Origin: Myxococcota bacterium
GTDB lineage: Bacteria > Myxococcota > UBA4151
DNA: 39,142 nucleotides
Direction of reading: 5' to 3'
NCBI GenBank assembly: GCA_036338695.1
Contig: JAYZBQ010000013.1
Location: forward strand, 1 to 39,142
The notes beneath the pieces are model-generated. The model saw nothing but the letters and a program-made list of their open reading frames with translations. It had not been told where the DNA came from and searched no databases. Shown piece by piece: positions 2,981 to 24,552 of this stretch. The position numbers and the translations under genes were made by a program. Numbering within the stretch: position 1 is the stretch's first letter; the number at the start of each line of letters is the position of its first letter.

Positions 2981-2998
2981 ACTGAAACATGTTCTAGT
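2981..2998. promoter_or_regulatory. KstR-type operator (site 1) in the divergent region between the ACAD pair and the amidohydrolase-hsaACDE operon
   Basis: ACTGAAACATGTTCTAGT; core 2983-2996 TGAAACATGTTCTA fits TnnAACnnGTTnnA; about 25 nt upstream of GTG 3021. Confidence 0.8.
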
Positions 2999-3020
2999 GC
3001 GCTTGGAGGGAGAACCTGTC

Positions 3021-3848
3021 GTGGCGATCAGCGAGGCGGTGATCGATACCTTCGTCAACGTCAACATGGGTTCCACCGAGCGGCCGGACTGGCTCGTGCG
3101 CGTGGCCGAAGATTACTTCAAGCGGGCCGACGCGATCTTCCAAGACATCGAAGCCGACGAGCTGGTTGAGACCATGGACCGCTGCGGTGTCAGCAAGGCG
3201 ATCATCACGATGCGTGCGCTCGAGCCTGACCCGCGCATCCTCGCCTTCCCCGAGCGCTATCCCGAGCGCTTTAGCCTCAGCATCAGCTGCGACCCGCGCC
3301 AAGGCATGAAGACCGTCCGGGCGCTCGAGAGTCTCGCCCGAGCCCATCCGGTCAGCCTGGCGCGCATGGTGCCCTTCATGACTGGCGTTGCGCCGAACCA
3401 GGCGCCGTCCTATCCGGTCTTTGCGAAGTGCTGTGAGCTCGGTCTACCGATCTCGGTCAACACGGGGATCCCCGGACCGCCCGCCCCCGGCATGGTCCAG
3501 CACCCGATGCACCTCGATGAGGTCTGCTTGTTCTTTCCCGAGCTCGAGCTGGTCATGGCGCACGGCGCCGACCCCTGGTGGGCTGAGGCGATCCGGCTGA
3601 TGCTCAAGTACAAAAATCTCTACCTGATGACCTCCGCCTATGCGCCAAAGTACCTGCCGCAGTCGCTGCTGGACTTTATGAACTCGCGCGGGCGCCACAA
3701 AATCCTCTTCGCATCCGACCACCCCGTTTTGGGGATGGATCGTTGCTGCGCTGAGGCGCGTGAGCTATCGCTCAAACCAGAGGCTCTGCGCGCCTACCTG
3801 AATGAAAACGCTCAGCGCCTGTTTTTTGATCGACTGGAGGTGACATGA
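3021..3848 (+). CDS. Amidohydrolase_2 family protein
   Basis: TIM-barrel amidohydrolase_2 motifs (YPVFAKCCELGLPISVNTG, FPELELVMAHG, KILFASDHP, ENAQRLF); GTG 3021 follows GGAGGG RBS; stop overlaps hsaA start (ATGA). Confidence 0.85.
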   Translation: MAISEAVIDTFVNVNMGSTERPDWLVRVAEDYFKRADAIFQDIEADELVETMDRCGVSKAIITMRALEPDPRILAFPERYPERFSLSISCDPRQGMKTVRALESLARAHPVSLARMVPFMTGVAPNQAPSYPVFAKCCELGLPISVNTGIPGPPAPGMVQHPMHLDEVCLFFPELELVMAHGADPWWAEAIRLMLKYKNLYLMTSAYAPKYLPQSLLDFMNSRGRHKILFASDHPVLGMDRCCAEARELSLKPEALRAYLNENAQRLFFDRLEVT

Positions 3849-5023
3849 CGGTCGACGTCCAATGGCTCAAGAAAGCAGAGGCTCTAGGCGATGCGCTCGC
3901 CGAGCGCAGGACAGCCTGCGAGGCGCAGTCACGGATGCCGCAAGAAACGGTCGATGACTTTCACGACGCCGGGCTCTGGCGCTTGCTTCAACCCAAGCGC
4001 TACGGCGGCGCTGAGGCGCACCCGAACACCTTCATGGCTTGCCAAACAGCGATCGCAAAGCGCTGTCCATCCAGCGCCTGGGTCTACGGGGTCGTCGGTG
4101 TGCACTCTTGGCAGCTGGCGCTGTTCGACGAGCGCGCACAGGACGAGGTTTGGGGCGACGACACCCGCGTCCTCATCTCGTCTTCGTACGCGCCGACCGG
4201 GCAGGTCGAGCGGGTCGAGGGCGGCTATCGGCTGACCGGCACCTGGAAGTTCAGCTCAGGCTGCGAGTTCTGTGACTGGGTGTTCCTGGGTGGGTTTGTC
4301 CCAGCCGCCGAGGGCGCCCCGCCAGGTCCCCCGGACATGAGAACGTTCTTGCTCCCCAAATCCGACTATCGGATCGATCGGACCTGGAACGTGGCAGGGC
4401 TGCAGGGGACCGGGAGCCACAACATCGTCGTTGATGGCGCCTTCGTGCCCGAGCATCGGACCCACAAAATGTCGGACGGCTTCAACCTTAAAAGCCCCGG
4501 CAACTCGGTGAACACGGCGCCGCTGTTCAAGGTACCGTTCGGCTTGTTGTTTACCCGATCGGTCTCCACCACAGCGATCGGTCTACTTGAGGGCGCGCTC
4601 GACGCGTACCTCAAGGTGGCGCGCTCAAAGGTGAGCGCCTCGGACCAACGGCGCGTCGTCGAAGACCCCAAAAGTCAGGAGGTCTGCGCGGAGGCACGCG
4701 CAGAGCTCGAGAGCGTCAAGTTGGTGCTTGAGCGCACCTTTAATGAGCTGATGCAGGCGGCCGAGCGAGGCGAGCGACCGACGATCGAGCGGCGCGCCCT
4801 GTTCCGCTACGAGAGCGCCATGGCGGTGCAACGCTGTATGGAGCAAGTGGACAAGCTGATGAGCCAAAGCGGCGGCACGGCGATCTTCGCCGATGCGCCC
4901 ATTCAACCGTTTTTCCAGGGCATCCACGCGGCGCGAGGACACTACGCCAACAACCCGGCGAAGCCCGCGCAGAATCTGGGACGCGTCTTGCTCGAGCTCA
5001 AAACTCAGGACTTCTTTTTGTGA
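3845..5023 (+). CDS. hsaA: Flavin-dependent monooxygenase, oxygenase subunit (3-HSA 4-hydroxylase, HsaA/TesA type)
   Basis: VGVHSWQLALFDERAQDEVWGDD...ISSSYAP...WKFSSGC...GLQGTGS closely resembles HsaA as I recall it; adjacent extradiol dioxygenase and MCP hydrolase. Confidence 0.88.
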   Translation: MTVDVQWLKKAEALGDALAERRTACEAQSRMPQETVDDFHDAGLWRLLQPKRYGGAEAHPNTFMACQTAIAKRCPSSAWVYGVVGVHSWQLALFDERAQDEVWGDDTRVLISSSYAPTGQVERVEGGYRLTGTWKFSSGCEFCDWVFLGGFVPAAEGAPPGPPDMRTFLLPKSDYRIDRTWNVAGLQGTGSHNIVVDGAFVPEHRTHKMSDGFNLKSPGNSVNTAPLFKVPFGLLFTRSVSTTAIGLLEGALDAYLKVARSKVSASDQRRVVEDPKSQEVCAEARAELESVKLVLERTFNELMQAAERGERPTIERRALFRYESAMAVQRCMEQVDKLMSQSGGTAIFADAPIQPFFQGIHAARGHYANNPAKPAQNLGRVLLELKTQDFFL

Positions 5024-5919
5024 TCCGACCGGTAGCTCAGCTGGGCTATCTTGGCTTCGGCGTCTCCGACCTCGAGGCATGGGCGTCGTTCGCCACGCAG
5101 ATTCTCGGGTTGCAGCTCACCGATCCAGACGAACACGGCTTTGACCTGCGCCTCGACAGCCACCGGCGCCGCTTTCTTATCCGTAAGGACCCCTCAGACG
5201 ACCTCAACCTGGTGGGCTGGCAGGCGGCGGACGCCGACAGCTTTGACGCCTTGGCGGAGCGCCTCGAGACCGCAGGCGTCTCCCCGCGTAGTGCGCCGGA
5301 GCCCCTGCGCAAGGCGCGCGGCGTCAACCGCCTCGTGCAGTTCGAAGACCCGGCAGGGATTCCCAGCGAGCTGGCGCTCGGTTACGACACCGCAGCGACG
5401 CCCTTCACCTCTGAGCTCGTGCGCGACGGGTTCGTGGCTGAAGAGCTCGGCCTAGGACACCTCGTCGTCACCAGCGAAGATCAAGCGCGCAGCGAGCGGT
5501 TCTACGAGCAGACCCTGGGCTTTGGTTTCTCCGACCGGATCAGCTGTACGGTCTTCGGCTACGACGTCGACATCGCCTTCTTTCATACCAACGCCCGCCA
5601 CCACAGCGTCGCGGTCGGAGGGCGGCTCGATAAACGCATTCACCACTTCATGATCGAGGCGAAGGCGATGGATGAGGTCGGCCGCGCCTACGACCGGTGC
5701 ATTCGCCAGCGCATCCCGATCATGAACACGCTGGGTCGACACCCCAACGACCAGATGTTTTCGTTCTACGCGTTCACGCCGTCGGGGTTTCAATTTGAGT
5801 TTGGGTGGGGCGGGCGAGCCGTCGACCCGGCCGATCACCCCGCCGGTGCCTTTGACCGCATCTCAGAGTGGGGTCACCACCCCCCAGCGCTGCTCGCTCC
5901 CCGAAAGAAGAAGCCGTGA
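5020..5919 (+). CDS. hsaC: Extradiol ring-cleavage dioxygenase (HsaC/TesB/BphC type)
   Basis: QLGYLG N-terminus; metal-ligand motifs GLGHLV, RHHSVA, IHHFMIE; TLGRHPNDQMFSFYAFTPSGFQFEFGWGG. Confidence 0.88.
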   Translation: MIRPVAQLGYLGFGVSDLEAWASFATQILGLQLTDPDEHGFDLRLDSHRRRFLIRKDPSDDLNLVGWQAADADSFDALAERLETAGVSPRSAPEPLRKARGVNRLVQFEDPAGIPSELALGYDTAATPFTSELVRDGFVAEELGLGHLVVTSEDQARSERFYEQTLGFGFSDRISCTVFGYDVDIAFFHTNARHHSVAVGGRLDKRIHHFMIEAKAMDEVGRAYDRCIRQRIPIMNTLGRHPNDQMFSFYAFTPSGFQFEFGWGGRAVDPADHPAGAFDRISEWGHHPPALLAPRKKKP

Positions 5920-6749
5920 TCGATACGCCCCGAAGGGTCCCACGCGGCGCCAGCGTCCCCATCGGTGATGGGCTTGAGATTCACTATCACGAGGCAGGCA
6001 GCGGGCCGCCGGTCATCTTTGTTCACGGAAGCGGACCTGGGGGCAGCGGCTGGTCGAACTTTCAAGGCAACTATGAGCCGCTCGCCCAGGCTGGGTTTCG
6101 CTGTCTGGTGCCGGATCTGATCGGCTACGGCTACTCATCCAAGCCCGACGATGCGCGCTATACGCTCGATTACCTCACACGCGGCGTGGTCGCCTTTGCC
6201 GACCAACTCGGGCTCGAGCGCTTTGCGCTCATCGGTAACTCGCTCGGAGGCGCCATCTGCATCCGGTTGGCGCTCGACCACCCCGAGCGGGTCGAGCGCA
6301 TGGTGCTGATGGCTCCGGGTGGCATCGAGTCGCGAGCCGTCTACATGGGCATGAAGGGTATCCGCAGCATGCTGCGCGCGCTCTTTGACCCTGCGGGGCT
6401 CACGCTTGAGAGCATGCGTAAGGTGTTCAGCAAGCAACTCTTCGACCCGAGCATGGTCTCTGAGGCGCTGCTCGAGCAGCGCTTTCACATCGCCCAGCTG
6501 CAACCCCAGGCGGTGTTCGCGACCAGCCAGGTCCCAGATCAAAGCGGTGAGTTGCACCAGATCACTTGCCCGGTGCTCGGCTTATGGGGCGAGGACGACC
6601 AGTTCTGTCCGATCTCTGGGGCGGCGACGCTCGAGCAGGCGCTGCCCGATGTGCGCGTCGAGCGCTTTTCGAATTGTGGGCATTGGGTCATGGTTGAGCA
6701 TGAGGCGGTCTTCAACAACCTCGTTCGCGACTTTTTATCGGAGCGCTGA
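5916..6749 (+). CDS. hsaD: Meta-cleavage product C-C hydrolase (HsaD/TesD/BphD type)
   Basis: HGSGPGGSGWSNF, GNSLGG nucleophile elbow, CGHW; GTG at 5916 overlaps the hsaC stop (GTGA). Confidence 0.85.
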   Translation: MIDTPRRVPRGASVPIGDGLEIHYHEAGSGPPVIFVHGSGPGGSGWSNFQGNYEPLAQAGFRCLVPDLIGYGYSSKPDDARYTLDYLTRGVVAFADQLGLERFALIGNSLGGAICIRLALDHPERVERMVLMAPGGIESRAVYMGMKGIRSMLRALFDPAGLTLESMRKVFSKQLFDPSMVSEALLEQRFHIAQLQPQAVFATSQVPDQSGELHQITCPVLGLWGEDDQFCPISGAATLEQALPDVRVERFSNCGHWVMVEHEAVFNNLVRDFLSER

Positions 6750-7531
6750 TGGCTCTTGCACAACACCTCATCGACGCCCTCGGGGACGAGCTCTGGGCTT
6801 GTCTCAACGAGCGGCGGACCGTCGCGCCGATCACCGATCGTCACCCCGAAATGACGATCGATGATGCGTACGCCGTCAACCTGCGTCTGCGGAACCTACG
6901 CAGCGCCCGCGGGGACCGCCTCGTCGGGAAGAAAATCGGCGTCACGAGCCACGCAGTTCAGAGCATGCTCGGCGTTGACCAGCCTGACTTTGGGTTCCTT
7001 TTTGACACCATGGTGTACGAGCGAGAGATGCCGATCTCGAAGCAACTCATTCAGCCGCGCGCAGAGGGAGAGCTCGCCTTTGTGCTCAAGGCGCCGCTGC
7101 AAGGCCCGGGCGTCACCGACGAAGACGTCCTCACTGCCACCGAGGCGGTCATCCCCTGCTTTGAGGTGGTCGACTCACGGATCGCCGACTGGAAGGTCAA
7201 AATCCAGGACACGGTGGCGGATAACGCTAGCTGCGGGCTCTACATCCTAGGGCAGGGCGTCTCGCCGCACGGTCTGGATTTCCCCAACCTGGCGATGCGC
7301 GTGTTCAAGAATGGGGAGCTGCTGAGCGAGGGCGAAGGCCGCGCAGCGCTTGACTCGCCCGTCAAGTGCGTGACCTGGCTCGCCAACACCCTAGGACGCT
7401 ACGGGATCTCGTTGGACGCTGGTGATGTGATCTTATCGGGGTCCTGGGTCCCCCTCGAGCCGGTCCAAGCGGGGGATACCATGCGGCTTGAGATCGGCGG
7501 GGTCGGCGCCTGTGAGGTCGTCTTTACCTGA
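6749..7531 (+). CDS. hsaE: 2-hydroxy-penta/hexa-2,4-dienoate hydratase (HsaE/TesE/MhpD/DmpE type)
   Basis: GKKIGVTS...QPDFG, QPRAEGE, EVVDSRI, IQDTVADNASCG (FAH-superfamily hydratase). Confidence 0.88.
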   Translation: MALAQHLIDALGDELWACLNERRTVAPITDRHPEMTIDDAYAVNLRLRNLRSARGDRLVGKKIGVTSHAVQSMLGVDQPDFGFLFDTMVYEREMPISKQLIQPRAEGELAFVLKAPLQGPGVTDEDVLTATEAVIPCFEVVDSRIADWKVKIQDTVADNASCGLYILGQGVSPHGLDFPNLAMRVFKNGELLSEGEGRAALDSPVKCVTWLANTLGRYGISLDAGDVILSGSWVPLEPVQAGDTMRLEIGGVGACEVVFT

Positions 7532-7626
7532 GGCCACATCGTGCACCGCCTAAGGCTTTCCGAGGGTTGACGCTGGCGGCCGCCCACAGACTGCTCTAAA
7601 GACGTCCCGCTCATGCGGAGGTCACC

Positions 7627-10149: not shown

Positions 10150-10206
10150 GCGCCACCTTGCGCTCTTGGACGGAGCGTGCACTAAGGCGGCGAGGAGGGG
10201 GTGATC

Positions 10207-11112
10207 GTGACCAAACTCAAAGCGGCGATCATCGGCCCGGGCAACATCGGGACCGATCTCTTGTACAAAGCGCTCCGCTCGCCTTGGGTGGAGCCGACCT
10301 GGATGGTCGGGATCGACCCCAACTCCGAAGGGCTCAAACGCGCCAACGCCTTGGGTCTTGCGACGACGGCGCAAGGGGTCACCGGTCTGATCGAGGCTGG
10401 CGGTGCGGATGAGATTCAGCTCGCTTTTGACGCCACCTCCGCCAAGGTACACCGAGCTAACTACGAAGCGCTCAAGCCCTACGGCGTGACCTGCATCGAC
10501 CTGACGCCGGCGGCGATCGGCCCCTACTGTATCCCGCCGGTCAATCTCGACGAACAGGTCGACCAGGCGGTCGACAACGTCAACATGGTGACCTGCGGCG
10601 GTCAGGCGACGATCCCGATGGTCGCCGCAGTGCACCGCGTCCACCCGGTTGCATATGGTGAGATCATCGCCACGGTCGCGTCACGATCGATCGGTCCGGG
10701 CACGCGCAACAACATCGACGAGTTTACACGCACGACCGCCGCCGGGATCGAGCGCGTCGGCGGCGCCAAGGTCGGTAAGGCGATCATCGTCATCAACCCA
10801 GCCGAACCCCCGATCATGATGCGAGACACCATCCACTGCGTGATCGAAGAAGCGCCTGATGAAGACGCTGTTCGGCGATCGATCGACGAGATGGTGCGCT
10901 CCGTCCAAACCTATGTGCCGGGCTATGTGCTCAAAAATGGACCGGTGTTCGATCAACTTCCAGACGGTCGCTACCGTGTCTCCACGTTTATGGAGGTCAC
11001 CGGACTCGGTGATTTCTTGCCGCGCTACGCCGGCAACCTCGACATCATGACCGCAGCGGCTCTTCGAACCGGTGAGCTGATCGCGAGCCGCCGCGCGGAG
11101 GGCGCACGATGA
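10207..11112 (+). CDS. hsaG: Acylating aldehyde dehydrogenase (HsaG/TesF/DmpF/MhpF type)
   Basis: [58 protein letters not shown] 10207 lies 8 nt after AGGAGG (alternative start 10201). Confidence 0.92.
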
Positions 11113-12146
11113 GCATTCAAGGCCGACGCGTCACGCTGCACGACATGTGTCTGCGCGACGGTATGCATGCCAAGCAGCATCAGATCTCAGTCGACGAAAT
11201 GGTCGCCATCGCCGAAGCCCTTGATCAGGCGGGCGTCCCGCTGATCGAGGTGACGCACGGAGACGGCCTTGGCGGCGCATCGATCAATTATGGCTTCGCC
11301 GCCCACAGCGACGAAGAGTACCTGCGCGCAGTCGTCCCGCGCCTCAAACGAGCCAAGGTGTCTGCGCTGACGCTACCCGGCATCGGCACGGTCGACCACC
11401 TGAAGATGGCGGTCGACTGCGGCGTCTCGTGCCTGCGCGTCGCAACCCACTGCACCGAAGCCGACGTCTCCGGTCAGCACCTCGGTATGAGCCGAGCGCT
11501 CGGCGTCGACACGGTCGGATTTCTCATGATGGCGCATATGATCGAACCTGAGGATTTGGTCGTCCAAGCGAAGATTATGGAGGGTGAAGGCGCCACCACC
11601 ATCTACTGCACCGACTCCGCAGGGTACATGCTCCCTCAGGACGTCACCGATCGCATCGCCGCCCTAAGAGCAGGTCTTCGCCCAGAGACCGAGATCGGAT
11701 TCCACGGGCACCACAACATGGCGATGGGCGTCGCCAACTCCATCGCAGCGATCGAGGCGGGCGCCGTTCGCATCGACGCCAGCGCAGCGGGTATGGGAGC
11801 AGGCGCCGGGAACACGCCGCTCGAGGTCTTGGTCGCCGTCCTCGAGCGTATGGGCGCAGATCATGGCTGCGATCTCTATGGTGTGATGGACGCCGCCGAG
11901 GACCTCGTCGTGCCCCTGATGCGCCGAGCGCCAACTCATTCGGTGCGCGTGGACCGCAACGCGCTGGTCTTGGGTTATGCCGGCGTCTACTCAAGCTTTC
12001 TGCTCTTCGCCGATCGAGCTGCGCAGCGGTATGGGCTGGCGGCGCGCGATATCCTCGTTGAGCTCGGTAAAAGAAAAACCGTGGGAGGTCAGGAGGATAT
12101 GATCGAAGATGTGGCACTCGACCTAAAAAAGAGGCGGGATCGTTAG
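11109..12146 (+). CDS. hsaF: 4-hydroxy-2-oxovalerate/hexanoate aldolase (HsaF/TesG/DmpG type)
   Basis: [56 protein letters not shown]; coupled to hsaG by ATGA overlap. Confidence 0.93.
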
Positions 12147-12191
12147 GGAGGCGAAACGTTTGAGCTTATAGGTCGGCTTCGCCACCTTAAC
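12142..12191 (+). terminator. Imperfect inverted repeat / possible hairpin after hsaF
   Basis: GTTAGGGAGGCGAA (12142-12155) versus TTCGCCACCTTAAC (12178-12191): one mismatch and one G-U pair; no clear U-tract. Confidence 0.3.
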
Positions 12192-12206
12192 ACCTTAGGC
12201 TCTCTC

Positions 12207-13424: not shown

Positions 13425-13616
13425 TCACTCAGCGAGCGTAAGCGCGCCGCGCGGGCACAGCCGGATCGCCTCCATCAGCTCCGCTCGGCGCGCCGGCGTA
13501 ACGTGCTCGTGATGGACGACGAGGACGTCGAGATCCGTGACCTCAAACACCTCCGGGCAGGCGTCCATGCACAACCCGTTCGCCTCACAGAGGTCGAGAT
13601 CCACAGAAACCTTCAT
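13425..13616 (-). CDS. Small single-cluster ferredoxin (probably 3Fe-4S; FdxD-like)
   Basis: MKVSVDLDLCEANGLCMDACPEVF...CPRGAL: CxxNxxC...CP pattern; last gene of the side-chain operon. Confidence 0.88.
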   Translation of the reverse strand: MKVSVDLDLCEANGLCMDACPEVFEVTDLDVLVVHHEHVTPARRAELMEAIRLCPRGALTLAE

Positions 13617-14689: not shown

Positions 14690-14691
14690 CG

Positions 14692-15864
14692 CTATCGCCT
14701 CCTCGGCAAGCCGAGGCCCGCCATTGCGATCATATCTCGCTGGACCTCGTTGCAGCCGCCGCCAAAGGTGAGCACGAGGCTCATACGATAAAACCGCTCC
14801 AGCCGACCGGACAAAGCGGCTCCAGCCGATCCGGTCTTGAGCATCCCGGCGGCGCCCAGAATTTCGGCGAGCCAGCGTGCGCCCTCGACATAGAACTCAG
14901 AGCCATAGACCTTAATGGCTGACGCCTCAGCCATCCCGAGGGTCTCGTTGGCGATCGCCCAAGCCTGCTTACCGTTGAGTAAGGTCAAACAGTCGAGCCC
15001 AACGCGAACCTGCGCTAAATTACGACGCACCCAAGGGCGATCGAGCAGCCGGGTCCCGGCGCCGTCCACCGCAGCGGCTGCAAAGGCGCGCGTCTCCTCC
15101 CAGAGCCGCTCGAGCGGACCCACTGCGCACAATGCCACGCGCTCGTGGTTGAGCTGGCTGGTGATGAGACGCCAGCCCCCGCCCTCTGTGCCCACCAGAT
15201 TCTCCAGAGGCACCTGAACGTTCTCGAAGTAGACCGCCGAGATGTTGTTGTCGCCTAACCCCCGGATGGGCGTCATCGAGACGCCGGGGCTGTCCGCGTC
15301 CACGATCAACATGGACAGCCCTTTGTGCTTTGGCGCATCCGGATCCGTGCGCACCGCCAGCCAGAAATGGTCTGCGTGATCGGCGAGCGAGCAAAAGATC
15401 TTTTGACCGTTGACGAGGTAGTGATCTCCCTGCCGCTTGGCGCTCGTGGTGAGGCTTGCAAGGTCCGTCCCTGCGCCAGGCTCGGTGTAGCCGATCGAGA
15501 AGTGGCACGTACCCGCCAAAATCCGAGGAGGATAAAGGCGCTTCTGCGCTTCGGTGCCATACTCAAGCAGGGTCGGCCCCACGGTATTGAGCGTCAAAAT
15601 AGGGACCGGAAAACCGCTGCGCTGCACCTCATCAAAGAAGATAAACTGCTCGATCGGACCGGCGCCTTGCCCCCCATAGGCTTGCGGCCAACCGATCCCT
15701 AACCAACCGTCGGCTCCGAGGCGCTCCATCGCCGCTCGATACAAGGGACCGCCTCCCTCACGCACCAGCAGCTCGGCTTCGAGCTCGTCGGTCATGAGCT
15801 CGTCTAGGTAACGCCTGAGCCGCTCGCGAAGCGCCACCTGCTCGTCCGTAAAATCGAGGTACAT
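14692..15864 (-). CDS. Steroid side-chain acyl-CoA dehydrogenase, FadE26/FadE29 (ChsE4/ChsE2)-like
   Basis: GWLGIGWP..YGGQG.GPIEQFIF, HFSIGYTEPGAGTDLASL, GWRLITSQLNHERVAL, TFGGGCNEVQR. Confidence 0.87.
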   Translation of the reverse strand: MYLDFTDEQVALRERLRRYLDELMTDELEAELLVREGGGPLYRAAMERLGADGWLGIGWPQAYGGQGAGPIEQFIFFDEVQRSGFPVPILTLNTVGPTLLEYGTEAQKRLYPPRILAGTCHFSIGYTEPGAGTDLASLTTSAKRQGDHYLVNGQKIFCSLADHADHFWLAVRTDPDAPKHKGLSMLIVDADSPGVSMTPIRGLGDNNISAVYFENVQVPLENLVGTEGGGWRLITSQLNHERVALCAVGPLERLWEETRAFAAAAVDGAGTRLLDRPWVRRNLAQVRVGLDCLTLLNGKQAWAIANETLGMAEASAIKVYGSEFYVEGARWLAEILGAAGMLKTGSAGAALSGRLERFYRMSLVLTFGGGCNEVQRDMIAMAGLGLPRRR

Positions 15865-15872
15865 GTTCCCCC

Positions 15873-16556
15873 TTACGACGACGGCGTCGTCGAGAGCGTG
15901 TCAGCAAATTGTGCGGGATCCAGGCGCACAAAGCGCGCTTGGGCGCTCGCCGTCTCGGCGCCGTCCAGAGCGCAGCTCGCCTTGAGGTCGACCGTGCGCC
16001 CCTGCTCGCGCTCGATCCAGGCGCGCAGCCGGAGCTGGCGATGAGCAGGCGTCGGGCGGTGATAACGCACCGTCAGCTCGGCGGTCACGCAGGGTGTTCC
16101 ACCCAGGATCAAGACAAAGCCCAACAGCTGATCAAAGACCGCCGCCAGCGCCCCACCGTGCACCCAGCCCGGGGCGCCGACGTAGCCGTTCTCAAAGCAG
16201 ACCGTCGCCGAGACCTCACCGTCCCCCTCCTCGAGCTCAGCCAGTGGACTGATCGGGTTGGAGCGACCGGTAATCCATGCGCGATCGGCGTACACCTCGG
16301 GTCGCTGAACGTAGTCCCCGTTTTGAAACTGCTCAAGGAAGGTCGGCGCCGGAAAAGGCTCGATCGTGCGGAGCGCCTGCTCGATCCGCTGAGCCGCCTC
16401 GAGCAGCTCAGCCTCCGGCGCCGCCGTGCAGATCACCAAATGATTCAGCCGGCGCAGCGCACGGGCGAGCCGGCGCTTGGCCGCCCAAGCCGGATCGCCG
16501 GGTGTCTCGATGATGTCCCACGAGCGACGTATGAAGGCTTTGATCTGCTCGTCCAT
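15873..16556 (-). CDS. PaaI-family (hotdog-fold) thioesterase
   Basis: GRSNPISP...YVGAPGWVHGGALAAVFDQLLG...TAELTVRYHRPTP. Confidence 0.85.
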   Translation of the reverse strand: MDEQIKAFIRRSWDIIETPGDPAWAAKRRLARALRRLNHLVICTAAPEAELLEAAQRIEQALRTIEPFPAPTFLEQFQNGDYVQRPEVYADRAWITGRSNPISPLAELEEGDGEVSATVCFENGYVGAPGWVHGGALAAVFDQLLGFVLILGGTPCVTAELTVRYHRPTPAHRQLRLRAWIEREQGRTVDLKASCALDGAETASAQARFVRLDPAQFADTLSTTPSS

Positions 16557-18151
16557 CAGCGCGCCGCAAGCTCGGCGGCGACCTGTTGAGCGGTGGTGTA
16601 GTCAGGTTTTCCAGTCGGATGGCGCGGCATCTCGTCGATGACAAAGAACTGCTTCGGGGTCTTGTAACCGGCGACCTTGGTTCGGGTGTGCGCGCTCAGC
16701 GCCGCAGCGTCAAAGGCCGCTCCTTTGCGCAGCGTCACGAGGGCGCAGACGCGCTGGCCCCACTGCGCATCGGCGACGCCTACGACGATGGCGTCTGACA
16801 CGCTCGGGTGCGCCTTAATTCCCTCTTCAACCTCTTCGGGGAAAACCTTCTCACCGCCGGTGTTAATGCAGACCGACCCCCGACCGAGCAGCGTGATGGT
16901 CCCGTCCTCTTCAAGCACCGCGAAATCCCCCGGTATGACAAACCGCCCCGAAGCCGTCTCAACAAAGGTCGCTGCGGTCTTCTCGGGGTCCTTGTAATAA
17001 CCGCGCGGCAAGTGGCCACCCGTCGCCAGCATCCCTGTCTCGCCCACGGCGCAGACCTCCAAGGTCTCGGGATTCAACACCTTGGTGCGCCCACCGAGCA
17101 TAAAGAACTTCGCCCGCCCGCCTTCGGCGCTGATCGCCATGCCTGCGTGGCCGGACTCCGACGAGCCGAAGTTGTTCATGATCATGGCGCAGGGAAAAGC
17201 CTCCTCAAGCTGCTCACGAACCGACTGGCTCAGCACCGCGCCCGCCGAGGTCACCACGCCGAGCATGGGGGCTTCGTAGTCGCCGCTCAAGTAGGTCTCG
17301 GCGAAGGGGCGCGCCATGGCATCGCCGACCAGATTCACGACGGTGACGCCCTCTGCTCCGAGCAAACGGCAGGTCTCTTCGGGGATAAACTTGGGACCGG
17401 GCGTCAGGCAATTCCGGCCTCCTGTGAAGATCGCGATCCAACACGCAAACTGAGCTGACCCGTGGATCAACGGCGCCGCCGTATGCATCGAGTAGGGCAT
17501 CCCGTCGCGAATAAAGTCCACGAGATCTTCCGGCCGCTCGAGCGGGTCATCGCCTGGTCGACCGCCTTGCAAGCCGGCAAAGAGGAGCTGGTCATGCTCC
17601 CACATCACCCCGCGCGGCATACCCGTCGTTCCGCCCGTATAGATGATGCACAGGTCCTTGCCTGAGCGCTCGATCTCACGGCGCGTGGGGTCCCCTGCGG
17701 CGAGCGCCGACGTAAAAGGGGTCGTGCGGGTCGAACCACAGGTGATGGCGTCGGCGCCTGCGGTGACCAAGACGCTCAGATCGGGCACACTCTCGAGCGC
17801 AGCCGAGACGCGCTCGACCAGTTCAGGCTCGAAAAAGAGCGCCTTCAAGTCGGCGTTGTCATACAGATAGGCGAGCTCATCGGCTACGTAGCGGTAGTTG
17901 ATGTTGATCGGCACGGCGCGCAATTTGTAGGCGGCGAGAGCAGCGACGAAATACTCATGCCCGTTGTAGAGCTGCAGCCCGACGTGGTCACCCGCGCCGA
18001 TCCCTTGACCACGGAGGTAATCTGCTAGCCGATTACTGACCGCCTCGAGCTCGGCATACGTCAGACGGACCTCCCCGGCGACCAACGCGACGTTCTCCGG
18101 GACCGTATCGACGACGATCTCAAACAGGTCCGCTAAGTTAAACACCGCCAC
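16556..18151 (-). CDS. fadD19: Steroid acyl-CoA synthetase, FadD19-like
   Basis: MAVFNLADLFE, ININYRYVADELAYL.DNAD, IYTGGTTGMPRGV, GYYKDPEKTAATF, LLGRGSVCINTGGEKVFPEEVE, GKPDY; GTG at 18151 after AAGGGGG; adjacent to ltp3/ltp4. Confidence 0.8.
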   Translation of the reverse strand: MAVFNLADLFEIVVDTVPENVALVAGEVRLTYAELEAVSNRLADYLRGQGIGAGDHVGLQLYNGHEYFVAALAAYKLRAVPININYRYVADELAYLYDNADLKALFFEPELVERVSAALESVPDLSVLVTAGADAITCGSTRTTPFTSALAAGDPTRREIERSGKDLCIIYTGGTTGMPRGVMWEHDQLLFAGLQGGRPGDDPLERPEDLVDFIRDGMPYSMHTAAPLIHGSAQFACWIAIFTGGRNCLTPGPKFIPEETCRLLGAEGVTVVNLVGDAMARPFAETYLSGDYEAPMLGVVTSAGAVLSQSVREQLEEAFPCAMIMNNFGSSESGHAGMAISAEGGRAKFFMLGGRTKVLNPETLEVCAVGETGMLATGGHLPRGYYKDPEKTAATFVETASGRFVIPGDFAVLEEDGTITLLGRGSVCINTGGEKVFPEEVEEGIKAHPSVSDAIVVGVADAQWGQRVCALVTLRKGAAFDAAALSAHTRTKVAGYKTPKQFFVIDEMPRHPTGKPDYTTAQQVAAELAAR

Positions 18152-18161
18152 CAGAGCCCCC

Positions 18162-19322
18162 TTATCCGGCCATCGGCGTCTCGCCGACGACCCACATCGC
18201 AAAAAATTGTGACCCACCACCATAGGCATGACCCACAGCGCGCCGGCAGCCCTCCACCTGATGCGCGCCCGCCAGCCCACGCACCTGACGCGCCGCCTCG
18301 GCGAATCGGATCATGCCAGACGCGCCGATCGGGTTGGAGCTGAGCACGCCGCCCGAGACGTTCGTCGGCAGCGCGCCGCCAAAATCCGTCACGCCGTCCT
18401 CGACCAGACGCCAGCCCTCCCCAGGGGCTGCGAATCCCAAATTCTCGAGCCACATGGGCTCGAACCACGAAAAGGGGACGTAGAGCTCGGCCATGTCCAG
18501 CTCATCGAGTGGGTTGCGGATCTGAGCCTGTGCGAAGACATCGGCTGCGCAGTCGCGCCCAGCCTGCGGGCTGACCTGATCTCGCCCGGGAAAGAAGATC
18601 GGCTCGCTGCGCAGCGATGTGCCTTGAACAAAAGCCGGTTTCTGAGGTGCTCGCTTCGCCGCCGGCTCCGACGACAGCACCATCGCACAGGCGCCGTCCG
18701 AGCTCGGACAGGTCTCAAGATAATTGATGGGGTCCCACAGCACAGGAGCTTGCGCGCACTGCTCGAGCGTCGGCTCGCTGTGCAGATGGGCCAGCGGGTT
18801 CTTGAGCGCATTGCGGCGGTCCTTGATCACCACCTTCCAGCCCACATCATGGGGCGCCTTCGCACGGCGAATGTAGGCGCGAATCAGCGGCGCAAAATAG
18901 CCACCCGCTCCCGCCACCGTCGGCGGCTGAAAAGGATAGGTCGGCGACAGCGCCCACATGGCGTTCGAGCAGCTCTGGACCTCGAACGCACAGCACAGCA
19001 CCCGCTCATGAACACCGGACTGTATAAGATGCGCGCCGACCACCGCTGTCGAGCCACCTACCGAGCCCGCCGTGTGCACACGAAGCAGCGGCTTACCGAC
19101 CGCACCGAGCGCGCTCGCAAGATGATGCTCGGGCATCATAATACCCTCGAAAAAATCCGGCGCTTTGCCGAGCACAACAGCGTCGATATCGCCCCACTCG
19201 ACGCCCGCCTCGAGCATCGCTGCGTCCACCGCCTCCCGGATTAATCCCGCAATGCTCTTGTCCTGACGCTTGGCGGCGTAGCGAGTCTGCCCCACCCCGA
19301 TGACGGCGCAAGGGCGGCTCAT
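18162..19322 (-). CDS. ltp3: Thiolase-fold (SCPx-type) protein Ltp3, putative steroid side-chain aldolase subunit
   Basis: GQTRYAAKRQD...VVLGKAPDFFEGIMMPE...GKPLLRVHTAGSVGGST...ELYVPFSWFEPMWLENLGFA...SGGVLSSNPIGASGMIRFAEAA...HAYGGGSQFFAMW matches Ltp3 as recalled. Confidence 0.9.
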   Translation of the reverse strand: MSRPCAVIGVGQTRYAAKRQDKSIAGLIREAVDAAMLEAGVEWGDIDAVVLGKAPDFFEGIMMPEHHLASALGAVGKPLLRVHTAGSVGGSTAVVGAHLIQSGVHERVLCCAFEVQSCSNAMWALSPTYPFQPPTVAGAGGYFAPLIRAYIRRAKAPHDVGWKVVIKDRRNALKNPLAHLHSEPTLEQCAQAPVLWDPINYLETCPSSDGACAMVLSSEPAAKRAPQKPAFVQGTSLRSEPIFFPGRDQVSPQAGRDCAADVFAQAQIRNPLDELDMAELYVPFSWFEPMWLENLGFAAPGEGWRLVEDGVTDFGGALPTNVSGGVLSSNPIGASGMIRFAEAARQVRGLAGAHQVEGCRRAVGHAYGGGSQFFAMWVVGETPMAG

Positions 19323-20233
19323 GGCGTACCCCCTAGATGACAGAGCAGGTTCTGCTGCATAGCGGGACCTGCGCTGGCGTGCGCCAGGGTGGAAGCCGCC
19401 TCACCGCGCCAGATCGCAGCTGCGGCTTCACCCAAGCGCAAGAGGCCGCTGACCATGTAGGTGTCAAATCGGCTCGTCGCGCCGAGGTTAACCGGCACGT
19501 CAACCGGGAGACCGATGGCGCGACGCAGCATGGGCAGCTGATGCTCGAAGCTGTAGTGCAACTCCGCGCGCTCGATCTCCACATCGCCTAAGTTGAGCGC
19601 TTGCGCGCAGGCTGCCGCTGAGCTCAGCTCAGCGATCGCTCGCTGAGACAACTCGCTGACGTCGATGCGATGATCGATGCCTCGGATCCACGCGGGTTGC
19701 TCACGCAAGGCCTGCGCTCGATCCCCGGCGGCGAGAATCACCGCCGCTGCGCCGTCTCGTAAGGGAACACGTCGAACAGCTTGGCGATGCCCTGCAGCGC
19801 TCGCTTGGAGCCCGGCGACCGACGCCTCATCGAGCCCGAGTGGCGCCGCCCAATACGGGTCGAGCTGCAGCGACAAGACCCGATCGAGGTCACCCAAGCT
19901 CGCCTGACCGAAGGCGTAGACGAGCGCGGTATCGATGTCGCCGTGCTGCAGGCGCACCCACGCCTCATACAAGGCGAACGCTCCGTCCATCTCGACGTGA
20001 CTCTCCTGGATGGGAGGGAAGGCTCCAACCCCGTCGAGCGCCGAGACAAAGGAGAAGGGGCGGCCGGATAAAAAATCGCTGGAGCCAGAGACCGTAAAAC
20101 CAATCTGTGGCTGCTCAAGGCCAACTTGTGCTCGGGCCTCCGAGCAGACAGCCTGGGTGAGCTCGACCTCATCAAGCGGAGTCGACGCGTCGAGCTCCGA
20201 ATGCGCAAAACCGACGATCGCAACCGGACGCAT
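19319..20233 (-). CDS. ltp4: Thiolase-fold protein Ltp4
   Basis: VAIVGFAH...SGSSDFLSGRPFSFVSALD..GAFPPIQESHVEMDGAFALYEAW...LAHASAGPAMQQNL; immediately upstream of ltp3. Confidence 0.87.
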   Translation of the reverse strand: MRPVAIVGFAHSELDASTPLDEVELTQAVCSEARAQVGLEQPQIGFTVSGSSDFLSGRPFSFVSALDGVGAFPPIQESHVEMDGAFALYEAWVRLQHGDIDTALVYAFGQASLGDLDRVLSLQLDPYWAAPLGLDEASVAGLQASAAGHRQAVRRVPLRDGAAAVILAAGDRAQALREQPAWIRGIDHRIDVSELSQRAIAELSSAAACAQALNLGDVEIERAELHYSFEHQLPMLRRAIGLPVDVPVNLGATSRFDTYMVSGLLRLGEAAAAIWRGEAASTLAHASAGPAMQQNLLCHLGGTP

Positions 20234-21189
20234 CAGAGGTGCTCCGCATAGTCTTCAAAGGGGGCGTCGGGCTCACCGGTGGGTTCAAAGTAACGGATCG
20301 CCTCCATCGAGGCAGCGGGTTCATCCGTCCACACGGCGCGCACGCGCATGCCCATGCGCACAGCGCCCGGGTCACCGCCGACCAAATGAATCAAGGGTAC
20401 ATCCGCCCCATCGAGGAGGATCGCCGCGCAGACGTAAGGCGGCTTGAGCCGCTGACCGGGGAACTCAATGCGGATGACCGAGAAGGTCGTCACGACGCCT
20501 GAGCTCTTGACCTCGACCTCTTCGACGCAGCTTGCTCCGCTGGCGGTGCACGCGCCGCGCGGCGGGATCAAGACTTGCCCGTTGACAGGCGAGCGGCGAC
20601 CCACGAGCCGCCGACGCTCAAGATGTCTGAGGAAAACCGACTGCGTAGCGCCTGCACGGATCACGTAATCGATGCCCACCGGGATCACGGCCACGTCGAG
20701 GTGTCCTAGAGGTTCTGAATCGGGGATTCGCCGCTGATCGAGAGGCACAAAGCACTGGATGTCGCTGATCGCCCCGTGTCGCTCCGTTCGCCAGCTCGGC
20801 GCCACGCGTAAGCCCGGCGCGGCTGCGGCGCGATCGCCGGAGGTATCGACTGCGTGGACAAAATAGCTGTCCGCGCCGTCGAGCCGAATACGCGCAAAGG
20901 CGAAAGGCCGATCGAGCGGATGATGCGCCTTCGGCTCATCGATCCAATAGACCGCCTCCAAGGTCCCCTCGCCGTTGAGCGGTACAAGCTCCGTCATCGC
21001 CTCTGCGGTCGTAGGATGATACTCCGTCGGCGGACAAAATACGGCTCCATCGGCGCTGCGAACGCCCAGCAAACAGCCCGCTTTGAGGCCACCAAAAAAC
21101 GCCCCGAGCACCGGACCGAGCCCCCGCTTGTAAGGATACTCGAGTCGGTAGGGTGCGGTCAGCTCCTCCACTTGGGTCACGCGCTTCAT
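20233..21189 (-). CDS. Tandem DUF35 (Zn-ribbon-like/OB-fold) protein, Rv3521-like partner of Ltp3/Ltp4
   Basis: Two repeats (LEYPYKRGLGP...PPTEYHP...PFAFARIRLDGAD and ...PPRG...PPYVCAAILLDGAD...VRMGMRVRAVW); ends FEPTGEPDA...YAEHL. Confidence 0.85.
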   Translation of the reverse strand: MKRVTQVEELTAPYRLEYPYKRGLGPVLGAFFGGLKAGCLLGVRSADGAVFCPPTEYHPTTAEAMTELVPLNGEGTLEAVYWIDEPKAHHPLDRPFAFARIRLDGADSYFVHAVDTSGDRAAAAPGLRVAPSWRTERHGAISDIQCFVPLDQRRIPDSEPLGHLDVAVIPVGIDYVIRAGATQSVFLRHLERRRLVGRRSPVNGQVLIPPRGACTASGASCVEEVEVKSSGVVTTFSVIRIEFPGQRLKPPYVCAAILLDGADVPLIHLVGGDPGAVRMGMRVRAVWTDEPAASMEAIRYFEPTGEPDAPFEDYAEHL

Positions 21190-22688
21190 CCCTCCTTAAG
21201 GATCATCGAGAGGTAATGCTTCTCAGGCCGACTCGAGCTCTGACCGACGTGGATGTGCTTGGTCTCGAAGTAGCCATTGAGCCCCTCGATGCCGAGCTCG
21301 CGCCCGAGACCGCTTTGTTTGTAGCCACCGAAGGGATACTTTGGGTTGATCAGGTGGTAATCATTGATCCAGACCGTGCCGGTCTCGAGCTGGCGAGCGA
21401 GCTCCGTGGCGCGCTCGAGGTCCTGAGACCAGATCGAGCCACCCAAGCCGTAGATCGAGTCGTTCGCCATGCGCACCGCCTCACGCTCGTCCGAAAACCG
21501 CTGAATCACGACCACCGGTCCAAAGATCTCTTCGCACGCCGCGGTCATGTCTGAGCGAACATCCGTGAAGGCTGTGGGCTCATAGTAGAAGCCGCTCGGG
21601 TCACAACCCGGTGGCCGCCGCCCGCCAAACAGCAAGGTGGCGCCCTCCTCCACAAGAGACCTGACGTAGCGCTCGGTGGTCTGGCGTTGGCCGTCAGAGA
21701 TCAGCGGCCCCATGGTGGTGTCCATGTCCATCGGATCCCCGACGATCACGTTCTCCATCTCGGCGCGAAGGCGCTCGACGAAGGCGTCATGCAGCGCCTC
21801 TGAGACCAGGATACGGGTCCCCGACTCGCAGACCTGACCGGAGTGAAAGAAGGTCCCAAAAATAGCTCCGGGGACAGCGATCTCGAGGTCGGCGTCATCA
21901 AGGATGATCGTCGCCGATTTGCCGCCGAGCTCCAAGAGGCAGCGCGTGACGCGCTCGGCGCATGACTTCATCACCTGCTTGCCGACGGCGGTCGAGCCGG
22001 TGAAGCTGACCTTGTTGACGTCAGGATGGCGAACCAGCGCTGCGCCGAGCTCGGGGTCGGGTCCCGTCACCACGTTGACCACACCTGCGGGCACGCCCGC
22101 TTCGTGGCAAATTTTTGCCATCATTAAGGCGGTGGCGGGCGTGTGCGGCGAGGGCTTGAGGACCATCGTGCACCCGGCGGCTAGGGCGGGCGCGACCTTC
22201 CACGAGGCGGCCGCAAACGGGAAGTTGAAAGGGATAATGGCGGCGACCACGCCGACGGGCTCGCGACGGATGATGTTGGTCGCCTCGATCGGGAAAAACT
22301 CCTGAGTTGCCTGCTCAAGCTCGAGCTGCTCGCAGAACTCTGCGTGCTGCCCAAAGCTCATGTTCGCGCCCATAATGTCTGCGCCGTTGCCTTTGCGCAT
22401 GGTGCCGCCGGAGTCTTGAATCTCCGCCATCACGAGGTCCATGTGGTGGTCGGTGATCAGGTCCGCAATTCGGCGTAAAATCTCGGCGCGCTCAGCCGGT
22501 GACTTAAGCCGCCAAACCCCTTCGTCATGCGCACGCTTGGCGGCAGCCACGGCCGCGTCGACGTCGGCCTCACCTGCTGCGGCAAAGTTCGCCCATGGCT
22601 GACCGTTCGCCGGGTTGATCGAGGCATAAACGGCGCCGCTGCGCGCAGGGCGCTCAGCGCCGTTAATGAACAGGCCGTGAGTCTCCAT
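21186..22688 (-). CDS. Aldehyde dehydrogenase
   Basis: PFNFP, LKPS, FTGSTAVG, LELGGKS, GQVC, EEIFGPV, PFGGYKQSGLGRE. Confidence 0.93.
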   Translation of the reverse strand: METHGLFINGAERPARSGAVYASINPANGQPWANFAAAGEADVDAAVAAAKRAHDEGVWRLKSPAERAEILRRIADLITDHHMDLVMAEIQDSGGTMRKGNGADIMGANMSFGQHAEFCEQLELEQATQEFFPIEATNIIRREPVGVVAAIIPFNFPFAAASWKVAPALAAGCTMVLKPSPHTPATALMMAKICHEAGVPAGVVNVVTGPDPELGAALVRHPDVNKVSFTGSTAVGKQVMKSCAERVTRCLLELGGKSATIILDDADLEIAVPGAIFGTFFHSGQVCESGTRILVSEALHDAFVERLRAEMENVIVGDPMDMDTTMGPLISDGQRQTTERYVRSLVEEGATLLFGGRRPPGCDPSGFYYEPTAFTDVRSDMTAACEEIFGPVVVIQRFSDEREAVRMANDSIYGLGGSIWSQDLERATELARQLETGTVWINDYHLINPKYPFGGYKQSGLGRELGIEGLNGYFETKHIHVGQSSSRPEKHYLSMILKEG

Positions 22689-22706
22689 GATGCCCGTCCG
22701 TTTGCG

Positions 22707-23036
22707 TTAGTTTTGCGGAAAGATCTGCTTGAGCTTCATCGCCATCGGGATCGCACCCTTGATCTTCATCTTGCCGGTCATGAAGGCCATCTGACCGTTG
22801 AGGTCGCCGTTCACCATCGAGACATAGTCTTCACCCTTCATAATAAAGGTGGTCGTGGGCTTCTCAGCGGCGCCCTCGTGGACGCTGAACGAGCCATCGC
22901 TCACGTTGACATGCCACGTACCCGACGGCTCGAGGTTAAACTGATAAGTCGCCGTCACCCCCTTGGACCCTTCCGCCGTAAAGCGCTGATCAAGGGTGTC
23001 GAAGTACTCTTGGACGTCGCTGACTCGAAAACTCAT
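22707..23036 (-). CDS. SCP2 sterol-binding domain protein
   Basis: 109 aa; ATYQFNL..SGTWHV.V.DG...G.LNGQMAFMTGKMKIKGAIPMAMKL; AAGGAG RBS; first gene of the side-chain operon. Confidence 0.9.
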   Translation of the reverse strand: MSFRVSDVQEYFDTLDQRFTAEGSKGVTATYQFNLEPSGTWHVNVSDGSFSVHEGAAEKPTTTFIMKGEDYVSMVNGDLNGQMAFMTGKMKIKGAIPMAMKLKQIFPQN

Positions 23037-23069
23037 CGATGGCTCCTTTAGCCGCTGTTTGGTGCGCCA

Positions 23070-23087
23070 ATTAGAACGTGTTCTAGT
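23070..23087. promoter_or_regulatory. KstR-type operator (site 2) upstream of the SCP2-led side-chain operon
   Basis: ATTAGAACGTGTTCTAGT; core 23072-23085 TAGAACGTGTTCTA; a consensus -35 TTGACA lies on the minus strand at 23110-23105, so the operator covers the expected -10 region. Confidence 0.85.
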
Positions 23088-23176
23088 CGGGCACAGGGGT
23101 TCGCTGTCAAGCAGGCATAGCGTGTAGCTGAGCCTTTGAACGCCGGGTGACCTGTGGCCCCGACGCCCACCGACGG

Positions 23177-23935
23177 CTAGTAGGCTACCCAGCCACCGTC
23201 GACCGGGATGACGGCGCCGTTGACGTAGCGCGCCTCATCGCTGGCGAGGAACACGGCGACATCGGCGATATCGCGCGCTTTGCCAAAGGGCGGTACGGTC
23301 GGGAAGTGCTTCGAGTAGCGCTCAAAGCCCTCAGTGTGGGGTGTAAAACTCGAGGCCATCGCCGTCATGATCGCGCCGGGGCAGATGGCGTTGCAGCGGA
23401 TGTTATGCGGACCATAAAACCAAGCGATGGACTTGGTCAGGCCCACCACAGCGTGTTTCGACGCGGTGTAGGCAGCGCCACCTCGCCCCCCATGATTCCC
23501 TGCCGCCGATGCCGTGTTAATGATCGATCCGCCCCCCTGATCCATCATCAGCTTGACCGCTAAACGGCTGGCTAAGAAGGGACCCTTGGCGTTGACGCCA
23601 AGCAGCCGGTCCCAGAGCGCCTCGTCGGTGTCATGAAGCGGCGTCAAATTATCGAGAATTCCCGCATTATTACACAGCGTGTCAACCCCGCCGAAGTCCG
23701 ACTGGGCGCGACCGATCAGCCGCTCGACGTCGGCAGCCTCGGAGACGTCGACCACCTCATAGGCTACCTCATGGCCCGCCTCGGCGAGCTCACCGGCTAC
23801 CTTCTCAAGCTTCTCGGTCTGCAGATCTGCCAGGACCAAACGAGCACCTTCAGCGGCAAATCGGCGCGCCATGGCGCGCCCCATCCCCGAGGCGGCGCCG
23901 GTGATCACCGCTACCTGACCGTCGAGCGCGCTCAT
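23177..23935 (-). CDS. Short-chain dehydrogenase/reductase (candidate hydroxysteroid dehydrogenase)
   Basis: TGAASGMG, NNAG, YTASK, ICPG, VDGG; coupled to the TetR gene by ATGA overlap. Confidence 0.88.
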   Translation of the reverse strand: MSALDGQVAVITGAASGMGRAMARRFAAEGARLVLADLQTEKLEKVAGELAEAGHEVAYEVVDVSEAADVERLIGRAQSDFGGVDTLCNNAGILDNLTPLHDTDEALWDRLLGVNAKGPFLASRLAVKLMMDQGGGSIINTASAAGNHGGRGGAAYTASKHAVVGLTKSIAWFYGPHNIRCNAICPGAIMTAMASSFTPHTEGFERYSKHFPTVPPFGKARDIADVAVFLASDEARYVNGAVIPVDGGWVAY

Positions 23936-24510
23936 GAGGCATCTCCGATCAGACGCTCGGTGGCGGCTTGTAGGTTCTCAATGACTTCGTCTTCGCTGAG
24001 CATCCCGTTGGCCCAGCCGAGTAAACTGGCGAAGCTCAGCTGCTGCAACCACCTCAGCCCTTGGAGCGTCTGCGCGTCGACAGCCGCCTCATCAGCGTGA
24101 CCGAGACAGCGCAGCATCAACCGACGCATCGTCGCCTGGTGGCTGTAGATCCGGTGAGTCGTCGCCTCGCCGCCTGCCGCTGCTGCGCGCAAGACGGCGC
24201 GCCCGAAGTTCGGGCGGTTGAAGAGCGCACGAGCCGCCAGGACCAAAAGATCGGCGATGCGCTGAACCGGGTCGGTATCAGACCAGGACAGATCGCTGAT
24301 CACGGCTTCAAAAGTTTGCGTGCTCTCATCCAAGGCAGCGACCAACATCTCCTCTTTGCTCGAGAAGCGGCTGTAGAGCGTCCCGAGCGCCACGCCGGCT
24401 TGATCTGCCACGTCGCGTAACCGCACGGCGTCAAAGCCGCCCTCCTCGGCAAGCTCAAAGGCGACACCCAAAATACGCTGCGCTTTCTCATCCAGCTGGA
24501 CTTGAGTCAT
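23932..24510 (-). CDS. kstR: TetR-family repressor, KstR-like
   Basis: Start re-assigned to ATG 24510 (AGGAGAG RBS): MTQVQLDEKAQRILGVAFELAEEGGFDAVRLRDVADQAGVALGTLYSRFSSKEEMLVAAL, HTH resembling KstR as recalled; KstR-type palindrome directly upstream. Confidence 0.8.
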   Translation of the reverse strand: MTQVQLDEKAQRILGVAFELAEEGGFDAVRLRDVADQAGVALGTLYSRFSSKEEMLVAALDESTQTFEAVISDLSWSDTDPVQRIADLLVLAARALFNRPNFGRAVLRAAAAGGEATTHRIYSHQATMRRLMLRCLGHADEAAVDAQTLQGLRWLQQLSFASLLGWANGMLSEDEVIENLQAATERLIGDAS

Positions 24511-24534
24511 CCGATCTCTCCTGAGTCGCCCACC

Positions 24535-24552
24535 ACTAGAACGCGTTCTAGT
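24535..24552. promoter_or_regulatory. KstR-type operator (site 3, perfect 18-bp palindrome), probable autoregulatory site
   Basis: ACTAGAACGCGTTCTAGT is its own reverse complement; 24 nt upstream of the TetR ATG; TTGACC lies just upstream on the minus strand. Confidence 0.88.

Follow-up and report, generated by a model that had tools for sequence, protein, structure and literature searches.

The 39,142-nucleotide stretch analyzed here (the window) is contig C13 of a draft genome, G000, of a Myxococcota bacterium. It carries three 18-bp palindromes and a gene for a TetR-family repressor of the KstR type (23932..24510, minus strand), and from sequence we put at about 85% the probability that the palindromes belong to an 11-site genome-wide set of operators for this repressor. 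The one protein likely runs most of a predicted steroid pathway, late ring-opening genes included. The KstR regulon itself is a well-described system; KstR is treated as actinobacterial, and Myxococcota are known as sterol makers. All genomes compared were drafts (assemblies 59-94% complete). G000 comprises 3.36 Mb at 64% G+C, with completeness of 93.6% and contamination of 0.98%; G001, G002 and G003 are its three congeners, G000, G001, G002, G004 and G005 lie within family f1, and the second box-bearing family is f24.

The repressor and its predicted operators

Box 1 (2981..2998, core 2983-2996) lies 22 nt before the GTG at 3021 (+) that opens the amidohydrolase-hsaA-hsaC-hsaD-hsaE run; on its other side, 134 nt away, is a divergent pair of acyl-CoA dehydrogenase genes. 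Box 2 (23070..23087, core 23072-23085) lies 33 nt before the ATG at 23036 (−) of SCP2 and the side-chain run, and box 3, a perfect palindrome (24535..24552, core 24537-24550), lies 24 nt before the kstR ATG at 24510 (−), where it is a predicted autoregulatory operator. The original prediction had described the three 18-mers at exactly these positions, as intergenic sites 22-33 nt upstream of start codons that fit the KstR operator, and each part of that description held. The pattern TnnAACnnGTTnnA matched the window three times, at 2983, 23072 and 24537, against a mean of 0.17 in dinucleotide shuffles of the window (0/100 reached three), and no additional site within two mismatches of the strict consensus was found anywhere in the window. 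The starts had also been called operon-leading; the upstream position of the boxes was confirmed, while leading status is only inferred. The same-strand run is ordered kstD, Zn-dependent alcohol dehydrogenase, site 3, kstR, short-chain dehydrogenase/reductase (SDR), site 2 and SCP2 onward, with site 3 only 1 nt from the alcohol dehydrogenase stop, so promoters at sites 2 and 3 would be internal to the run.

A matrix built from the three window sites already placed eight G000 sites outside the window high. To reduce circularity, the matrix was rebuilt from 26 sites at 12 loci in seven genomes of other genera (chosen by the same core pattern). Scanned over G000, this independent matrix gave 11 matches above 18 bits, the next match being at 12.9 bits, against an order-4 Markov null with a mean of 0.15 and a maximum of 1 in 20 runs. 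All 11 strong sites fall in intergenic DNA, which makes up 5.5% of the genome, at distances of 6-34 nt from a start; the called start of kshA (C28) spanned its box and was set to the ATG at 14251 before this count. Ten of the 11 precede steroid or lipid catabolic genes. Outside the window the boxed genes are two KshA-type Rieske oxygenases (E 4e-66 to solved KshA), a divergent P450/EchA19 pair, a second P450, a second SCP2, a thiolase-FadB-PRK07121 flavoprotein operon, and a divergon of fadD3 and echA20-ipdA-ipdB-ipdC-PRK08290 hydratase-fadA6. The proposed genome scan thus recovered the box ahead of kshA, P450s and further steroid genes, enriched over background. Three weaker matches of the first matrix (C72:39165, C30:20852, C18:26245) lie beside unrelated genes, were lost with the independent matrix and were rejected.

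An asymmetric local consensus put forward earlier fits the three window sites, from which alone it was derived; genome-wide, however, the box is a palindrome with TAGAAC or TGAAAC half-sites, mixed half-sites being common. Both half-sites also occur in mycobacterial KstR sites (Kendall et al., 2007, PMC1995591). A TTGAC hexamer begins 12 nt ahead of site 3; at site 2 a TTGACA begins 23 nt ahead. Of 31 oriented sites, among them related ones, 12 have T[TG]GAC starting 9-13 nt ahead of the box, where chance would give about 0.01 per site. This spacing is consistent with a box that covers the −10 region or the spacer. A sigma-70 promoter scan of 22600-25700 gave three matches, none at the boxes, and did not pin down a −10 element.

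The repressor (192 aa) was assigned by domain, sequence and fold matches. It contains PF00440 and PF17925 (the latter at 30.9 bits against a cut-off of 26.5) and is the sole KstR-type protein among the eight TetRs of G000. Its best PDB match is mycobacterial KstR (residues 8-191, E 1e-15), and the KstR2 structure matched at 2e-7 over the N-terminal half only. An AlphaFold2 model computed from 89 homologues had a predicted local distance difference test (pLDDT) score of 94. Ranks 1-12 of the model's Foldseek matches were all taken by KstR structures together with the Rhodococcus TetR 3bjb. These structures aligned with the model at Z 21.8-23.6 and a root-mean-square deviation of 1.8-2.4 Å over 175-184 residues; the next TetR had Z 16.0. 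The recognition helix is near-identical to that of Tsukamurella KstR despite 27% overall identity. As judged by sequence and modeled fold, the protein is a KstR homologue over its full length, which extends the earlier claim of a KstR-like helix-turn-helix.

The kstR gene is flanked on the same strand by the alcohol dehydrogenase and SDR genes and is not divergent from fadE34. The SDR oxidoreductase gene (23177..23935, −) overlaps the kstR stop and is likely co-transcribed. One metatranscriptome run contained a few short contigs 97-99% alike at a depth of 2-5, one of them over part of kstR, with no silent control. In trees, Myxococcota and actinobacterial KstR rows were split by a branch with support of 96/95 and 95/88 (LG+G4), falling to only 86/70 and 90/81 under a mixture model. 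The trees held six actinobacterial rows, none from Acidimicrobiia, and 40 and 13 hand-picked rows of 120 homologues; with such thin sampling, no claim is made on root or transfer direction. Both trees separate the Myxococcota-type proteins from the actinobacterial ones, though the mixture model supports this only moderately.

G004 and the congeners G001-G003 carry boxes at the corresponding promoters. In family f24, where KstR is 32-39% identical, boxes likewise stand ahead of steroid genes. The position of box 1 is kept in G001, G002 and G004, and G099 has a box before amidohydrolase-hsaA; box 2 is kept before SCP2 in locus L001 and G004; and kstR itself is preceded by a box in G001-G004. The kstR gene of family f24 is internal to an operon, and the box of that operon sits further upstream. 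PF17925 exceeded its cut-off in 10 of 401 genomes of the phylum (the tallies count G199 as one KstR-less genome). The same 10 carry 4-12 strict 18-bp boxes, as against 1-2 in 22 others and none in 369. A profile search built on 89 homologues found no KstR in G005 (family f1; one strict box) or G079 (family f24; no strict box). PF17925 was found in none of the 301 genomes of the phylum of alphaproteobacterium G043, in a search run without a positive control.

Several observations stand beside this set. One boxed gene with no steroid link, alone in this among the targets, encodes a predicted lipoprotein hydrolase of the PAE family and is followed by DUF2817 (G000:C4:18098-19336, L020); that it is a sterol-ester hydrolase is speculation. 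A gene of the 3-oxo-5-alpha-steroid 4-dehydrogenase family (G000:C22:9113-9871, L019) is convergent with the boxed thiolase-fadB-flavoprotein operon, as it is in G001. All five genomes of family f24 have a gene like G000 C76:27173-29650 (~825 aa) beside boxed steroid genes (L098, L100, L104-L106), and its product is possibly a transporter.

Control of the C/D-ring genes and competing explanations

Actinobacterial C/D-ring (HIP) genes form a separate KstR2 regulon, with the motif AnCAAGnnCTTGnT and HIP-CoA as effector (PMC3068626, PMC5380842, PMC7807495), and in the present analysis a scan located a KstR2 box at the Nocardia fadD3 promoter. Among the Myxococcota genomes a KstR box was found between fadD3 and echA20 in G000 (C78:6336), G001, G002, G004, G005 and G064; in G069 one precedes the fadD3 run. 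These are 7 of the 7 genomes with a readable promoter among 11 examined: G003, G099 and G125 had no C/D-ring match to the queries, and in G104 fadD3 was cut by a contig end. No KstR2 motif with up to two mismatches was present in the five family f1 intergenic regions examined. In G000 all 11 exact matches to AnCAAGnnCTTGnT are intragenic, none of them on the C/D-ring contig. PF17932 did not exceed its cut-off in G000-G003, and Nocardia KstR2 matched G000 over the helix-turn-helix only, with no full-length KstR2 match. We consider it reasonably probable that KstR controls the C/D-ring operon without KstR2. Family f24 has PF17932 TetRs with an adjacent AnCAAGnnCTTGnT-like palindrome (L097 on G064:C408, L102 on G069:C44, L077, L078); these were rejected as KstR2 because their neighbors are SDR, carboxylase subunit, acyl-CoA dehydrogenase and hydratase genes, not C/D-ring genes. 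This cluster resembles acyclic terpene utilization (Atu/AtuR).

In the mechanism we propose, a KstR-type dimer bound to the box would occupy the −10 region or the spacer, blocking RNA polymerase, and kstR would repress itself through its own box. An early 3-oxo-steroid acyl-CoA would free the repressor, and its release would induce side-chain, A/B-ring and C/D-ring genes together. With one early signal for most of the pathway there would be no second step through HIP-CoA and KstR2. Release by an early steroid acyl-CoA has been described for KstR (PMC5389471, PMC8700777).

A number of findings weigh against this interpretation or parts of it. The best NCBIfam family for the repressor, NF033703 (KstR), scored 82.5 bits against a cut-off of 280, which makes the protein a KstR-type homologue and not an actinobacterial equivalog, and identity to actinobacterial KstR is 27-28%. 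R158 and W164 are, we presume, effector residues of mycobacterial KstR; at these positions the window genus retains the Arg and has Ser for the Trp, and G004 and family f24 retain the Trp and have lost the Arg. Because the positions are only partly kept, the effector may differ. The strict 18-bp pattern was written after sites in both families had been seen, and the 10 KstR genomes are kin from two families, so the co-occurrence is to be read as two lineages and two absences, not as 401 trials. In G000 the kstD promoter (27276-27363) has no box, and neither has the ipdE2-ipdE1-ipdF run, though relatives have one. Since kstD is boxed in G001, G004 and L001, its state in G000 looks, from the sequence, like a lineage-specific operator loss. 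Searches of G000 and its three congeners turned up no HsaB-type flavin reductase (PF01613). G000 also yielded no reductase of KshB size, its lone PF00970 protein being 266 aa; ring cleavage may thus be incomplete or use other partners, and HsaA and the two KshAs may have unusual electron donors. G005 (93% complete) keeps the fadD3/echA20 box (C4:34238-34255, L096) with no kstR found, and TetRs of G004 match KstR2 at 27% over most of their length.

From the loose 14-bp consensus, which matches 26 times in G000, in many cases within genes, one might argue that the palindromes arose by chance or as structural repeats; counts far above the null, strong sites that are all intergenic and conservation at orthologous promoters refute this, and it retains almost no weight. 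Rather unlikely, in our estimate, is a real regulon whose substrate or effector is not intact sterol. The cells would then trim side chains or live on degradation products of steroids or on other cyclic lipids, with the repressor sensing another acyl-CoA. This would suit the missing hsaB and kshB, the HsaA, HsaC, HsaD and KstD matches, all under NCBIfam equivalog cut-offs, the variable effector residues, and the lack of an ipdA or echA20 match in four of the five family f24 genomes. It sits less well with the presence of two KshA-type enzymes, of FadD3, of EchA20-, FadA6- and IpdF-type proteins, of KstD and of side-chain genes, mostly boxed, or with the PF01613 flavin reductase (present in 3/10 relatives) that is divergent from kstR in G004 (C45:10784-11260), and it is compatible with the operator assignment. 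Unlikely, too, is a division of labor in which KstR reads the A/B-ring and side-chain boxes and a second, undetected regulator reads a similar C/D-ring box, preserving the two-tier logic. The fadD3/echA20 box is the TGAAAC/GTTTCA variant in 5/5 family f1 genomes and is exactly the box retained by G005, in which no kstR was found, and both assembly completeness and the KstR2-like TetRs of G004 leave room for such a regulator. However, the kstR box of G004 is itself the TGAAAC variant and mixed half-sites are common, the fadD3/echA20 box of G064 is the TAGAAC/GTTCTA variant, and G000 combines a single PF17925 protein among its eight TetRs with the lack of a full-length KstR2 match. G005, moreover, has no ipdA or kshA match, as in a decaying pathway, of which its box is possibly a relic.

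The host is probably a diderm member of Myxococcota. This call combines LpxC (a diderm marker), at least 150 Myxococcus-type cysteine repeats (150/150 scored candidates) and a ribosome recycling factor whose best taxon-named match is Myxococcales (63%), followed mostly by Deltaproteobacteria/Desulfobacterota labels. The same markers agree with the original placement of the system outside Actinobacteria, which would fail if the contig were misbinned actinobacterial DNA or a recent intact transfer. Many window genes do have actinobacterial counterparts 40-64% identical, and the closest named locus, L001, is titled with a different, non-myxobacterial taxon label. Yet Myxococcus-type repeats are encoded in the window itself (37999-38085, in a protein at 37843-39141, +, truncated by the contig end), the KstR sites are spread over seven contigs of a genome with little contamination, orthologue identity falls with genome distance (~63-69% within the genus, 40% at family level), the repressors cluster apart from the six actinobacterial sequences, and the genome behind L001 likewise has ~150 cysteine repeats. 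Misbinning or recent intact transfer is already largely refuted and highly improbable, and recent transfer of KstR from the sampled actinobacterial genera is unlikely. Operators of a resident KstR-type repressor remain the preferred explanation of the 11 sites.

Gene content of the window

The first gene behind box 1 encodes an Amidohydro_2 family protein (3021..3848, +, GTG start at 3021); a gene of this family precedes hsaA directly behind a box in G000, G001, G002, G004 and G099. It is followed by the A-ring cleavage genes for an HsaA-like oxygenase (398 bits against a cut-off of 450), an extradiol dioxygenase, an HsaD-like hydrolase and a 2-oxopent-4-enoate hydratase (3845..7531, +). Between hsaE and hsaG lies the gene for a predicted lipoprotein of 840 aa with amidohydrolase and thrombospondin type 3 repeats (7627-10149, +), found at the same place in G001 (78%), and 3′ of it lies a further listed feature (10201..12146, +). 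The ring-cleavage run ends with an N6/N4 DNA methyltransferase gene (12207-13424, +), kept in G001 (59%), for which no restriction partner was seen. The two acyl-CoA dehydrogenase subunit genes divergent from box 1 (550..2846, −) are possible further targets.

Behind box 2, the side-chain run (13613..23036, −), identified by family matches and synteny, encodes SCP2, an aldehyde dehydrogenase, a ChsH2-type OB-fold protein, two thiolase-like (Ltp3/Ltp4-type) proteins, a PRK07798 (FadD19-type) CoA ligase, a putative thioesterase and a FadE26/27-type dehydrogenase pair; these actinobacterial names are the ones we presume to apply, assigned from those matches. The Zn-dependent alcohol dehydrogenase and KstD-like 3-ketosteroid dehydrogenase genes occupy 24554..27276 (−). 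Within the steroid cluster stands a trio of PpiC-type rotamase, HupE/UreJ and DUF3604 genes (27363-30960, +), syntenic in G001 and G004 and partly so in G005 and L001. The IpdE2-, IpdE1- and IpdF-like C/D-ring genes (33948..36990, +) have no box of their own in G000.

Homologues of KshA, KstD, HsaA/C/D and the HIP genes are all encoded in G000, several below equivalog cut-offs; FadD3 and the EchA20-, FadA6- and IpdF-type proteins exceed theirs. From this gene content, G000 likely degrades steroids. It encodes no squalene or oxidosqualene cyclase, so the pathway has no tie to sterol synthesis there.

Novelty and comparison with known regulators

Two surveys (PMC4810484, PMC5790920) report bacteria that degrade steroids aerobically from no phyla other than Actinobacteria and Proteobacteria; their supplementary tables could list Myxococcota steroid degraders. 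A literature search outside subscription journals, RegPrecise and supplements returned no KstR or steroid-degradation report for Myxococcota, and a term search of the main text of two Myxococcota genome surveys (10.64898/2026.07.10.737566, PMC11821767) returned no steroid-degradation passage. A KstR regulon outside Actinobacteria would add a third phylum to sterol turnover. With an operator nearly unchanged between repressors that are 27% identical, the system lends itself to a natural test of operator and effector-pocket evolution, and the apparent merger of KstR2 targets into the KstR regulon suggests that textbook two-step control is not obligatory. A broader picture is possible, if on balance doubtful: uncultured Myxococcota lineages would eat sterols under one KstR switch for the genes of the side chain, the A/B rings and the C/D rings alike, and the single-repressor layout may be ancestral, with the KstR2/HIP-CoA tier a later actinobacterial addition, because the Myxococcota KstRs appear to branch deeply as sisters of the actinobacterial KstRs.

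Among known systems, the proteobacterial regulators TeiR and HsdR (Comamonas) and EdcR (Caenibius) likewise control steroid clusters in Gram-negative hosts, and EdcR is also a TetR (PMC8700777); their operators are unrelated to the KstR-type box. According to a 2021 review, KstR and KstR2 homologues are missing from bile-acid-degrading Proteobacteria (PMC8399759). The KstR2 (Rv3557c) HIP regulon shares the gene set fadD3, echA20, ipdA, ipdB, ipdC, fadA6, ipdE1/E2 and ipdF (Kendall et al., 2010, PMC3068626; Crowe et al., 2017, PMC5380842), whereas searches at the C/D-ring genes described here found neither a KstR2 orthologue nor a AnCAAGnnCTTGnT site, and a KstR box stands at fadD3/echA20 instead. 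The closest known system is the KstR (Rv3574/MSMEG_6042) regulon of Mycobacterium, Rhodococcus and Nocardia (Kendall et al., 2007, PMC1995591). In contrast to it, the present repressor has a diderm Myxococcota host, falls below the equivalog cut-off at 27-28% identity, and is encoded outside the fadE34-divergent arrangement of Mycobacteriales, which the annotated Tsukamurella kstR likewise lacks. The extradiol dioxygenase is nearer to BphC than to actinobacterial HsaC, and the presumed effector residues are only partly kept. The regulon is smaller, with 11 sites against 16-31 besides its own in the actinobacterial one, and it appears to take in the C/D-ring genes.

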